From Macrostomum lignano (taxonomy: Eukaryota): a DNA stretch of 64,000 nt. Positions 58,575 through 64,000 of this stretch are shown here, piece after piece. Made by a program: the position numbers and the translations under genes. The stretch's first letter is position 1. Each line of letters begins with the position of its first letter. Under the pieces are notes generated by a model. It had not been told where the DNA came from, searched no databases, and saw nothing but the letters and a program-made list of their open reading frames with translations. The stretch lies in NCBI GenBank assembly GCA_002269645.1, contig NIVC01003157.1, positions 1 through 64,000 of the forward strand, given 5' to 3'.

Positions 58575-59053
58575 ACAGCAGCAACCAAAACAACAACTAC
58601 ACAACCACAACAGCAACACAAACACAACCACAACCACAACAACCTCCACACGCCACAGCAACAAATCACACCCGAACAGTACTAGAAGGCTTGAAAAGCA
58701 GGGCCAAATGAGATTTCCAGTACAAAGATACGAACCCTGATACTTGGCGACAATTAGAGCGGCTCTCCCAGAACGAATGAAGCGAATCAATGACAGAGTA
58801 TTCACACCTCAACAAAGACAAGCGCCACATGACAGTTCCTCCTCTGACCAATCATTCGAATCACCTCCAAGCTCTTCCGGAAAAGGCATGCCTGAATTCT
58901 ACAAGCGGTTAGCTGTTCTTCTAGGAGCGGCAAAGACCGGAATGAAGACGAGAATAGAAAAGAATTTGTCAACATCCTGGACAAAATGCTTGAGAGAAAA
59001 TATATCGATAAAAGAGCAAGAGAACTTTTGCTTTCACGGTTTAACAAAAATAA
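58575..59053 (+). CDS. Polinton conserved protein (GKG...RL.LL.G..K.GN motif), 5' end in gap, frameshifted
   Basis: SSGKGMPEFYKRLAVLLGAAKTG, then after a 1-nt shift near 58941, NEDENRKEFVNILDKMLERKYIDK. This resembles the Polinton motif RL.LL..S..AGN...EI..ILD.L. The Q/P-rich start is disrupted next to the gap. Confidence 0.6.
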
Positions 59054-59069
59054 ATTTCTATTTAAAAAG

Positions 59070-59441
59070 ATGCGATTATTTTGAGAAAGACGTGGACAAA
59101 TACTATGACAAAGAGGAACTTAATCTTATTAAACGCGGATCTGGACTTTTCCCTGCAGGCCACTATCCAAGAAAAGAACGCTCTGGGAACGGTCTTGCTG
59201 ATTTGATCGCTCAAGGGGCCAAGATTTTTAAGGTCATTGGAGAGAACAAAGAGAACATCAAGAACGTTGCCGAAGCGGCTGGCAGTGTAGCCACAGCAGC
59301 CAAAAAGATAAAGGATACTGTAACACCTAAACAAGAGATTCAACCTCCACTGGCCCGCTGGCCCCAAACCCAGACAGTGTGGACCCTGCAGTCTATGAGA
59401 AGATGAGAGCAAGCATTAAAAAAGGAAGTGGTTTCAATTGA
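59070..59441 (+). CDS. Small Polinton protein with GxG motifs (putative virion core protein), frameshifted as assembled
   Basis: ATG at 59070 in aaaagATG context, then (1-nt shift) DYFEKDVDKYY...KRGSGLF...RSGNGLADL...; after a further 1-nt shift near 59345 it ends VYEKMRASIKKGSGFN*. Confidence 0.55.
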
Positions 59442-59490
59442 CTAAAGGTACTTTCGAGGGTACAAGAAATGTAAAGGTACAAGACTAGTT

Positions 59491-59672
59491 CAAAATGACA
59501 CATCTAAGTCCAAAATGACACATCTAAGTCCAAAATGACCAATTAAGTACCAGAATGACACATCTAAGTCCCAAAATGACACATCTAAGTCCCAAAATGA
59601 CACATCTAAGTCCCAAAATGACACATCTAAGTCCCAAAATGACACATCTAAGTCCCGAAATGACACATCTAA
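59491..59672. repeat. 20-21-bp tandem array inside the Polinton (caaaatgacacatctaagtcc)
   Basis: About 9 copies directly upstream of the ATPase ATG. Confidence 0.9.
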
Positions 59673-59714
59673 ATTATTTATTATTTAATTATTTTTTTTT
59701 TCATCATAGAAAAA

Positions 59715-61347: not shown

Positions 61348-61441
61348 ACAACCGGCGGTGCAGATGGAATTATCAAAAAGAAAACAGATCTTTCAACCGG
61401 GTAGTTTATAATTTTTTTATTATTTTTTCTAGAGAAAAAAA

Positions 61442-62155
61442 ATGGCCCAACAAAATTCTCTATACGATCAGTCTCAATACGTTGAACCTAAAATACCGAC
61501 AGCACCAAACTCAATGGCACCGAATTCGAACACACAAAACCTGGCACCGAATCTGAATGCACCTCAATATGAGCAACAAAAACTCTACCCTGTCATTACT
61601 TGTAACTCTCAGCAGTTTCGACTAGTGGAGATTCAAAAAATGCGCGATGATCTTGAAAAAAATATTTTCCACAACACAAAGAAAATTAAGCGCTATGACA
61701 ACCACTGTAAATTTTTCGACTACAGCAATATGATTCTAGGATCTGTGTCTGTTCTATCTGGATCTGCTGCAGCTGTCTCAGTGTTGCCAGTCATCACAGC
61801 CCCAATCGCAATCCCGCTCGGCTCTGTGGGTGCTGCATGTGGACTTATTTCAGCAATTACTGGAGCATTAGCGCGAAACAGGCGAAAAAAACTAAAGCAG
61901 CTACAGGAGAAGCAAGTAAAAGAGAAAGGGGTGCACACTTCAATCATAGGGTACATTTCAAGGGCAATCGAGGATAAGTTCATTTCAGAGGATGAGTTCA
62001 AAACCATTCAGGATCTTTATGAACAATCAATTCGAATGAACTTGAACATGGTCGGTACTGATGACATGAGTCAGCTGAGAAATGAACTCGAGAAAGTTCT
62101 TCAACATTATGCGGAAAGAAGGACAACGAGAAGTACAACGAGGAATGCACAATGA
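61442..62155 (+). CDS. Conserved Polinton/adintovirus membrane-associated protein (237 aa; GasderX-like)
   Basis: LYP...QFRLVEIQKMRDDLE...KRY, a hydrophobic Gly/Ala hairpin (ILGSVSVLSGSAAAVSVLPVITAPIAIPLGSVGAACGLISAITGAL), and a C-terminal ISRAIEDKFISEDEF. This layout matches a family I recall from adintoviruses; the name needs HMM confirmation. Confidence 0.7.
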   Translation: MAQQNSLYDQSQYVEPKIPTAPNSMAPNSNTQNLAPNLNAPQYEQQKLYPVITCNSQQFRLVEIQKMRDDLEKNIFHNTKKIKRYDNHCKFFDYSNMILGSVSVLSGSAAAVSVLPVITAPIAIPLGSVGAACGLISAITGALARNRRKKLKQLQEKQVKEKGVHTSIIGYISRAIEDKFISEDEFKTIQDLYEQSIRMNLNMVGTDDMSQLRNELEKVLQHYAERRTTRSTTRNAQ

Positions 62156-62158
62156 ACC

Positions 62159-62558
62159 CTATGAAACACAGGTACGAATAATTTCCTTGTAGGTCTTTCG
62201 TGTTTTGGTCATTGCATACAAAACAGTCATGCACAGCTCACCGCAAATATCACTGCTAAGACCTTGAGAATAAAGTCTGAGCGATAAATTTTTTTATTTT
62301 TTTTCCCTTCATATAATTTCTTAGCTCTTCTGGTACTGCCGTCCCATAGCTATCAAAGTAATAACACTTGTGCTTGCGATCGGGATCAATCACCCAGCAA
62401 ACCCAATGAGATCCTGGCTTATCAGTGGTGTCAAAGTTCATGATGCCGCATTCCTTTCTTAGAGGAAAATCAGGCAGAGTGTCCCTCATAAATATTCCTC
62501 TAAAGTTTGGGATTTCCAGTTCGTTAGCCAAATCTTCAAGAAAGTTATTTGTCGTCAT
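62159..62558 (-). CDS. Adenain-like (Ulp1/C5-type) cysteine protease, frameshifted near the 3' end
   Basis: FRGIFMRD...NFDTTDKPGSHW...YFDSYG; the catalytic Q...CG..C segment (QGLSSDICGELC) follows in another frame and ends with TAG at 62161-62159. Confidence 0.88.
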
Positions 62559-62591
62559 TTTTTATGAGGTTTATTAAACTTTCTCTTAAAC

Positions 62592-64000
62592 CTAAACCCA
62601 ATATCCACCTCCTAAACCTAACCTCCAATGCCCGAACGGTAGACTGTTGATATTGTCATCAAAAATGAATCTCTTGTTATCTGCACCTGACAGTCCAATC
62701 TTCTTTTGCTGAATTGTGTGAATAATATGGTTTTTAGATTGTAGCTTTGAGAACTCATGTGATGTCTTTTTGTTGCAATTCAAGGCGTCTCTGTATTCAG
62801 CTTCATTAATTTCCTTCCTAACTACACGTTTCGGAATTCCCTTTGATTTTTTGATTGGGTCTGACGACTCACATTTTATAAAATAGGACTTTGCTCTCAA
62901 CCCAATGAATTCAGTGATTATATCACCAGCAATCTCGTCCTTCATTTTCCCAATCACTTTCTTGTTAGTGGCGTCAAACACTTGATCACCATTCAGCGTC
63001 CTGCAAGATTCGTCATACTCAGACAAGTCAAACAACTCTTTTTGCTGCAGCATGTCCTGATAAATGTCTTCTGTTTGAATGTCCATAATAAAACTGTCTG
63101 TGTCAGTGTACAAGAGTTTCATTTTATCCTTGTACTGCTGCTTCATGCCATAGAAGAATTGGTACATCAGACGTTTTGATTCGTCGAGAACAGTGACACC
63201 TGTATAGATCGGCTTGCGCAGCGTCACCTTGGTTTTGTAAAATATGATCACACCTAAGTAGCTATTAAAGATATGGAGTTCTTTGAATGTTGGCTTTGAC
63301 ATATTTGCCTGAATAACATCAGGCTCTGATGAGGTAACAAGTTTCAGGTTTGTTCTTTTCCGCTCATTCTCAAGAGTCTTGCCATAGACAGAGTTGTTGG
63401 CCAACTTAAAGAGGTTCTTGTCAAAGTCGTTGGTTGCTTTGGTCCTAAACTGGGTGTTCTTATCAATGTAGGGTTTCATCCACGCTTCCTCTGTAAATGT
63501 AAGAGCCCTGTGAACTTTGGTGACCCTGCAACCAAGTGAGATAAAATACTGAAGCAGTTTGTAATGAATTTTGTAACGTGTCTTGTTGTTTAGATTCTGT
63601 GTTAGCTTCTCTGTATGTTCTTTTTCTGTTCCTGACAGGTGCCAAGTTCCATTATTATCATTGGGAGTTTCGATTATTTTCGGGCACTTGATGTTCTCTG
63701 GGAAGGGTGGAAAGTCAGAGAAATAGTCGTGAAGCTCTGGTGGAATGTAAACATCAACCTCATAAATGGCAGCCAATGAAAAGTCCCATTTGAATTCTGT
63801 TACGAGTAGCCATCGAAAATCTCTAACTGGAAGATCTTGACTCATCGCCCACCCGTAGAGATTATTAGCGTCCAAGTAAGTAATGTAGTTTGAGGGCTGC
63901 TCCTTATTGTAAGATTCAATGTAGGGATTGTTTGCTTTTGCATACCTGTTAGCGCAAATTGAGATTCCCCCTCGTTTTGACGATTCGACAAAATTGTACA
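62592..64000 (-). CDS. Protein-primed family B DNA polymerase (pPolB), C-terminal part; continues beyond the window
   Basis: YLDANNLYGWAMS (motif A), KLANNSVYGKT (motif B), LLYTDTDSF (motif C). The upstream RGGIS motif is broken by one missing G near 63970. Confidence 0.95.
   Translation of the reverse strand, partial: YNFVESSKRGGISICANRYAKANNPYIESYNKEQPSNYITYLDANNLYGWAMSQDLPVRDFRWLLVTEFKWDFSLAAIYEVDVYIPPELHDYFSDFPPFPENIKCPKIIETPNDNNGTWHLSGTEKEHTEKLTQNLNNKTRYKIHYKLLQYFISLGCRVTKVHRALTFTEEAWMKPYIDKNTQFRTKATNDFDKNLFKLANNSVYGKTLENERKRTNLKLVTSSEPDVIQANMSKPTFKELHIFNSYLGVIIFYKTKVTLRKPIYTGVTVLDESKRLMYQFFYGMKQQYKDKMKLLYTDTDSFIMDIQTEDIYQDMLQQKELFDLSEYDESCRTLNGDQVFDATNKKVIGKMKDEIAGDIITEFIGLRAKSYFIKCESSDPIKKSKGIPKRVVRKEINEAEYRDALNCNKKTSHEFSKLQSKNHIIHTIQQKKIGLSGADNKRFIFDDNINSLPFGHWRLGLGGGYWV

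Follow-up and report, generated by a model that had tools for sequence, protein, structure and literature searches.

The right end of the stretch analysed here, 64,000 nucleotides of contig NIVC01003157.1 (the window), consists of 5.4 kb of densely packed, intronless genes (58575-64000) behind a 935-nt gap. We consider it quite likely that these genes are an internal segment of a single animal Polinton copy (Maverick, adintovirus-like), likely integrated, likely one of tens of copies, and member of a recently replicating family. Three hallmark genes of the Polintons/Mavericks (Eupolintoviridae) are found, namely pPolB, an adenain-type protease and an A32/FtsK ATPase, the latter two frameshifted in the assembly. 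The original prediction had described a virus-capable Polinton/adintovirus-like element with replication, maturation and packaging genes. The identity of the element and of these genes holds, whereas their intactness does not: ATPase, protease and the left block of small genes are split by frameshifts that had been overlooked, and with two broken core genes and no capsid or integrase match in the window the attribute 'virus-capable' finds no support in this copy as assembled. Judging from its reading frames, the window copy as assembled would yield neither a whole ATPase nor a whole protease.

Two gene blocks point towards each other (Table 1). On the minus strand lie pPolB and the protease, facing a plus-strand block that comprises, in this order, two small genes, a 21-bp repeat array, the ATPase, ORF272 and ORF237. 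This convergent layout had been predicted and is confirmed, as are the parts of the plus-strand block, including the coiled-coil gene, for which a long-helix model was obtained, and the membrane protein, which shows a hydrophobic stretch. The final stop codons (plus strand 62153-62155, minus strand 62159-62161) are indeed 3 nt apart, as previously stated for 62155/62159. However, the protease changes frame near 62270-62310 and therefore reaches the stop at 62159 only after this change, and the spacer varies in length among contigs of the family. We considered the 3-nt spacing as a special feature and rejected it, since inward-pointing modules are usual and the spacer is variable. In base composition, the element has a GC content of 0.40 compared to 0.45 in the first 57 kb of the window, and at third codon positions (GC3) of 0.40-0.46 compared to 0.60.

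Table 1. Features of the element and of the sequence next to it, in window coordinates.
Feature	Position	Strand	Evidence or remark
48-bp tandem repeat, 12.5 copies, reaching into the gap	57038..57639		13 unit matches, all here
Assembly gap, 935 N	57640..58574		join of element and host unsequenced
Left gene 1, start inside gap, split over frames	58575..59060	+	weak c11 likeness at its end
Left gene 2, small protein, GxG motifs	59065..59440	+	frame backed by third-position variation
21-bp tandem repeat within the element, 8.8 copies, separating gene blocks	59491..59672
A32/FtsK packaging ATPase, three pieces	59715..60509	+	Pox_A32 E 0.0023; Walker A and B present
ORF272, intact coiled-coil protein, internal 28-aa duplication	60529..61347	+	6 homologs
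ORF237, intact, hydrophobic stretch	61442..62155	+	homologs
Adenain-type cysteine protease	62159..62558	-	Peptidase_C5 E 0.0027; relatives' profile
pPolB, 468 aa (3' 468 codons), open at window end	62592..64000 (ORF 62592-63998)	-	motifs, homologs, fold

The polymerase carries the three family B motifs (DANNLY, KLANNSVYGK and YTDTDS) and has 4439 homologs among 7001 candidates, the best 120 of which are 41-46% identical; the named ones among the matches listed come from cnidarians, molluscs, a nemertean and an echinoderm. It aligns to the C-terminal part (from about residue 760-1010) of relatives that are 1217-1514 aa long. Sequence searches of the PDB with the polymerase gave chance matches at most. 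Its structure model (pLDDT 84) finds phi29 polymerase as the best match among solved structures (E 3e-11, TM score 0.50), with other family B enzymes at E 1e-4 or weaker. Among viral models, its closest folds are those of a MELD virus, of Drosophila-associated adintovirus 3 and of an adintovirus (E 1e-34 to 5e-33, 24-26% identity), and bidnavirus-like polymerases also rank high. By type, the enzyme is protein-primed. A pPolB phylogeny, as proposed at the outset, was built as a quick tree of 48 rows taken from top matches and loci, with no outgroup; in it the polymerase forms a long branch (1.55) among animal-associated sequences, with no close relative and a best identity of 47%.

Alpha-class adintovirus polymerases are of the pfam03175 type, akin to the PolB of bidnaviruses, and usually occur with a virion module bearing PLA2X. 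The window fragment itself has no Pfam match, and PF03175 is matched by 8 of the 32 aligned members. By inference from these PF03175 matches and from the fold ranking, the polymerase probably belongs to this Alpha class (likely the pPolB1 of Jeong et al.). The Beta class was considered on account of EndoVII domains in relatives and the lacking Pfam match, and became a minority view after the PF03175 and fold results. Terminal-protein and vOTU domains have been described at the N-terminus of Polinton polymerases (PMC11161782), a region that here lies beyond position 64000. In addition, a distant variant of the polymerase with 25 differences in about 180 nt (63445-63623) occurs at low depth in three of four runs; it is either a second, rarer Polinton family or an old copy.

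Protease and ATPase are weak in Pfam and strong against relatives from IMG/VR. Compared with a profile of three relatives, the first piece of the protease alone scores 86 bits and the read-through version with X at the break 103 bits, the catalytic His and Asp motifs lying in this first piece and those with Gln and Cys in the final one. The three pieces of the ATPase are collinear and in different frames, with breaks near 60150 and 60320-60360, and match profile positions 16-108 (E 2e-17), 120-187 (E 2e-21) and 188-220 (E 0.001). The left block (58575-59440) is also split over frames. At a distance of no more than about 40 nt from every homology-defined break, window and family differ in length. 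Among 12 of the 38 length differences, five lie within 370 nt to the right of the gap, and pPolB, ORF272 and ORF237 contain none of the 12. Because length differences to the family contigs fall near the breaks, we lean towards assembly errors rather than decay as their cause. This case shows that frameshifts in an assembly can mask whether a Polinton copy is intact.

That the element belongs to a family is seen in public sequencing runs. Twenty of the 24 runs listed contain 63-74% of the stretch's sampled words; they come from one organism and seven studies between 2015 and 2024, and one of them may be the source. Contigs assembled from four of these runs (4958, 3166, 203 and 658) could be placed on 58575-64000 and cover all 30 bins. 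The window differs from the family at 136 listed substitution sites and in the 38 length differences. A substitution test was restricted to the best-supported 40 of the 136 sites, two of which lie outside genes and were dropped. Third codon positions account for 27 of the 38 in-gene substitutions that remain (p 2e-6), for 18 of 21 isolated sites and, in protease and ATPase together, for all six sites listed. From this bias it follows that purifying selection acted while the window copy and the majority of the family separated, a pattern expected of replicating lineages. The sequence variation points to what is likely a multi-copy, recently active family shaped by purifying selection. Low-depth variants with internal deletions are also present. 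In run X11, the main contigs listed have depths of 446-1056 and a variant with 25 differences a depth of 15. None of the runs that contain the stretch is recorded as RNA. Run X10, only guessed to be RNA, shows fairly even cover with contigs crossing intergenic DNA, which speaks neither for nor against expression.

The genes missing from the visible part can be approached through relatives. In IMG/VR, 23 loci carry a pPolB of the present type. Two of them, L006 and L008, agree with the present element in that the protease gene immediately follows the polymerase, and they also have the ATPase, a member of the ORF237 family, and penton-like, pX-like and major capsid protein (MCP) genes. The MCP domain PF21738 was confirmed in both, rve in L006 and L007, and PLA2 in L006. 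Because relatives with three or four of its genes carry capsid genes, the family as such, by analogy, probably has a complete Polinton gene set. The relatives' MCPs are 426-439 aa long, and the 935-nt gap is too short for an MCP gene alone; for this reason the capsid genes are more likely to lie beyond the right end, upstream of the polymerase. Capsid and integrase genes had been expected to the right of the window or in the gap; the gap at its stated size is the less likely place, and these genes and the penton gene probably lie on the right side. As a side observation, L022:2740-4248 is a single 503-aa ORF matching both protease and integrase profiles, apparently a fusion.

The flank to the left of the gap is animal DNA. 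It contains a cadherin gene (31028-33931), GKAP and DOMON domains, zinc fingers and a broken retroelement with reverse transcriptase (RT) and RNase H. Because of the cadherin, GKAP and DOMON genes, the host is identified by its sequence as an animal. Polintons are marked by terminal inverted repeats, an AG-type end motif and a 6-bp target-site duplication. The 48-bp array that runs into the gap may belong to the element as a subterminal repeat or to the host as a minisatellite; many other minisatellites occur in the window. The 21-bp array inside the element is covered by family contigs in all four runs examined.

Several observations weigh against reading the stretch as an integrated copy of a recently replicating family. 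No run contains more than 74% of the words, which fits errors and a private diverged copy equally well, and contigs drop rare variants, so private mutations of the window copy are possible. The depths hint at tens of copies, but contig depth is not a copy number. The only link of the element to the host genes is a run of N, and neither an element terminus nor a target-site duplication was seen in the window, into which only one side of the element could fall. MCP, penton, integrase, pX-like and PLA2 profiles of the relatives matched none of 1976 six-frame pieces of the window, and tblastn of the window for these genes found nothing at E <0.05; these searches cover the window, in which the element is cut by window end and gap so that about one third of a typical 13-25 kb element is visible. 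Finally, c11 and c19 precede the MCP gene in L006 and L008, an order not shared by the present element: its corresponding place is followed by a repeat array and the ATPase.

Of the competing explanations, the one that survives best holds that the window copy is a truly decayed or truncated relic, its frameshifts being genuine mutations that arose after insertion, with sister copies remaining intact. We regard it as possible, though clearly the less probable account. A degraded state has been reported for 96% of 3511 vertebrate Maverick loci (PMC8097293), and both the number of differences between window and family and the low-depth deletion variants would suit a relic. However, neutral decay does not give substitutions that fall mostly on third positions. 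The length differences are many compared to the few non-third-position changes and are clustered at the contig edge, and pPolB, ORF272 and ORF237 are unbroken.

A second alternative, which we judge improbable, is that the capsid genes have disappeared from the family, which now multiplies as a self-copying DNA transposon with ATPase and protease retained. The visible 5.4 kb indeed hold no capsid gene, the MCP gene is not in its place behind c11 and c19 as in L006-L008, and in a published set an intact or split MCP is present in 59 of 72 Polintons and thus lacking in 13 (PMC4028283, Krupovic et al.). Against this, the element is seen only to about a third of its typical size (PMC8097293). In the published set loss of the MCP usually accompanies loss of protease and ATPase, nine of the 13 Polintons without MCP being also without these two genes (PMC4028283); here both are retained with a third-position bias. 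Very unlikely, and the weakest of the three, is the account in which scaffolding across the gap set a free virus (episomal or infecting) or a misjoined sequence beside host DNA: the host link through N only, the lower GC and GC3 and the very high depth in some runs would fit, but 20 runs of one organism, spread over nine years and seven studies, contain the element, with many low-depth internal-deletion variants as expected of old genomic copies.

As an integrated Polinton, the element would follow the life cycle of protein priming, integration, packaging and maturation described for this group (PMC8502044, PMC11161782, PMC8097293). The polymerase would copy the excised linear genome by protein priming from a terminal protein, and an integrase would reinsert the excised copy. 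The ATPase would package DNA into a jelly-roll capsid, and the protease would mature the particles by cutting small core proteins such as those that left genes 1 and 2 may encode.

ORF272 belongs to a small family with a best E of 1e-27 that has mainly the N-terminus in common, and its model is a single long helix of 190 residues; the predicted protein is possibly a stalk or fibre, which is a guess. A word-based search with ORF272 confirmed none of 1051 candidates, matches in the Atlas stayed below 0.8, and a metagenome scan with its alignment gave 274 candidates, none confirmed. Its N-terminus was tried as a homolog of c12 and did not rise above shuffled controls. At the end of ORF272 (61230-61380), and likewise at 58575-58770, the cover by family contigs becomes sparse or divergent, and loose ends and replaced segments occur, which suggests subfamilies differing in left gene 1 and the end of ORF272. 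ORF237 has five close homologs (42-49%) and more distant ones in L006 and L008 (E 5e-12 for L008); from its sequence the protein is likely membrane-associated, and it is conserved in adintovirus-like elements. With ORF237, a metagenome scan of its alignment gave 126 candidates, none confirmed, and a scan of viral contigs found nothing beyond L008. A separate search of viral contigs with a single protein gave five candidates, none of them confirmed.

The two left genes are shorter and harder to place. At its end, left gene 1 is weakly similar to the C-terminal domain of c11, a conserved gene located two genes before the MCP gene in relatives: with X at the break it scores 7.9 bits, a value reached by none of 40 codon-shuffled controls (maximum 6.1), while its unjoined pieces are not significant against c11. 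This likeness suggests that left gene 1 likely encodes a virion accessory protein. The frame of left gene 2 is backed by family substitutions, with six of seven among the sites listed at third codon positions, and its product is likely a putative core protein processed by the protease. A relation of left gene 2 to c19 (cupiennin-like), the gene at the corresponding place in the relatives, is not supported, as no BLASTP or profile match was found and the similarity was not above shuffles. The starts of some genes also have contexts in common. Those of ATPase and ORF237 (59690-59717 and 61415-61444) have a T-rich tract, AG and an A run followed by ATG, and those at 59070 and 60529 have another common context of 18 nt, each pair scoring above 99.7% of random ATG pairs. 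These contexts could be promoter motifs or splice or trans-splice acceptors. The relatives' starts are likewise T- and A-rich, mostly without the tract-plus-AG form, and no spliced joints at these starts were among the joints listed for the family contigs.

Further repeats and mobile sequences were observed in the host flank. About 1.3 kb left of the 48-bp array, a retroelement of non-long-terminal-repeat type with RT and RNase H domains lies in several frames on the minus strand (53962-55700). A short imperfect inverted pair of 13 nt (56159-56206 and 56884-56896), with three 11-nt direct repeats inside the left arm, may be the remnant of a small DNA transposon or due to chance. At 6990-8150, facing arrays of 16- and 62-bp units form a long imperfect inverted repeat, foldback-like, and at 21479-21885 there is a near-perfect hairpin element with arms of about 160 nt and 97-98% complementarity. 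The GKAP-domain gene (10391-11951, plus strand) contains a tandem repeat of 10 residues (30-bp unit, 14.5 copies) that changes its reading frame inside the array, which may be a further assembly error.

Animal genomes commonly contain Polintons, and an element of this kind is ordinary in itself. Its value lies in an apparently recently active multi-copy family in an organism with many public sequencing runs. Maverick particles had not been observed according to Barreat and Katzourakis (2021); if complete, expressed copies existed in a laboratory animal, the question of such particles would become testable by plain observation. A more far-reaching proposal is that of a deeply diverged lineage (polymerase less than 48% identical to any match, rearranged modules, a lineage-specific coiled-coil fibre gene) that has amplified to tens of copies in a much-sequenced animal and whose complete copies still transpose or form particles. 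We hold this to be rather unlikely; if true, the formation of virions by animal Polintons could be examined in a natural system that is both rare and tractable.

Animal Polintons/Mavericks, the adintoviruses now placed in the Eupolintoviridae (PMC8502044, PMC12451622), resemble the present element in pPolB, adenain protease, A32/FtsK ATPase and dense intronless genes; their integrase, hexon, penton, inverted terminal repeats and N-terminal OTU domain are not seen in the part visible here. The animal-type loci with a PLA2-bearing virion module, L006, L007 and L008, are 40-42% identical in the polymerase, 31-51% in the ATPase, depending on the piece, and 38-48% in the protease. In L006 and L008 most genes, from ATPase to protease, lie on one strand in the order ATPase, penton, pX-like, ORF237-like, c11, c19, MCP, polymerase, protease, whereas the present element has two convergent blocks with ORF272 after the ATPase, and ORF272 has no homolog in L006, L007 or L008. 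Vertebrate Mavericks are alike in their two inward-pointing modules on opposite strands, in core genes under purifying selection and in many degraded copies; however, they combine polymerase and ATPase in one module and protease with the capsid genes in the other, while here the polymerase pairs with the protease (PMC8097293).

Flatworm Polintons with pPolB1 are, by their published description, the same kind of element in the host group proposed at the outset. Jeong et al. catalogued 748 integrase-linked pPolB1 copies of flatworms in 8 of 73 assemblies (PMC10748475, Supplementary Table 2), and planarian Polintons are piRNA targets and silenced by piRNAs (PMC8532177). The earlier emphasis on a little-described host lineage is accordingly weak if the host is a flatworm. 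The listings searched for the flatworm and planarian Polinton or Maverick literature contain no description of the present family. The new part of the finding is a distantly related family that arranges its genes in an order of its own and carries an unnamed coiled-coil gene, within a kind of element that is already well known.

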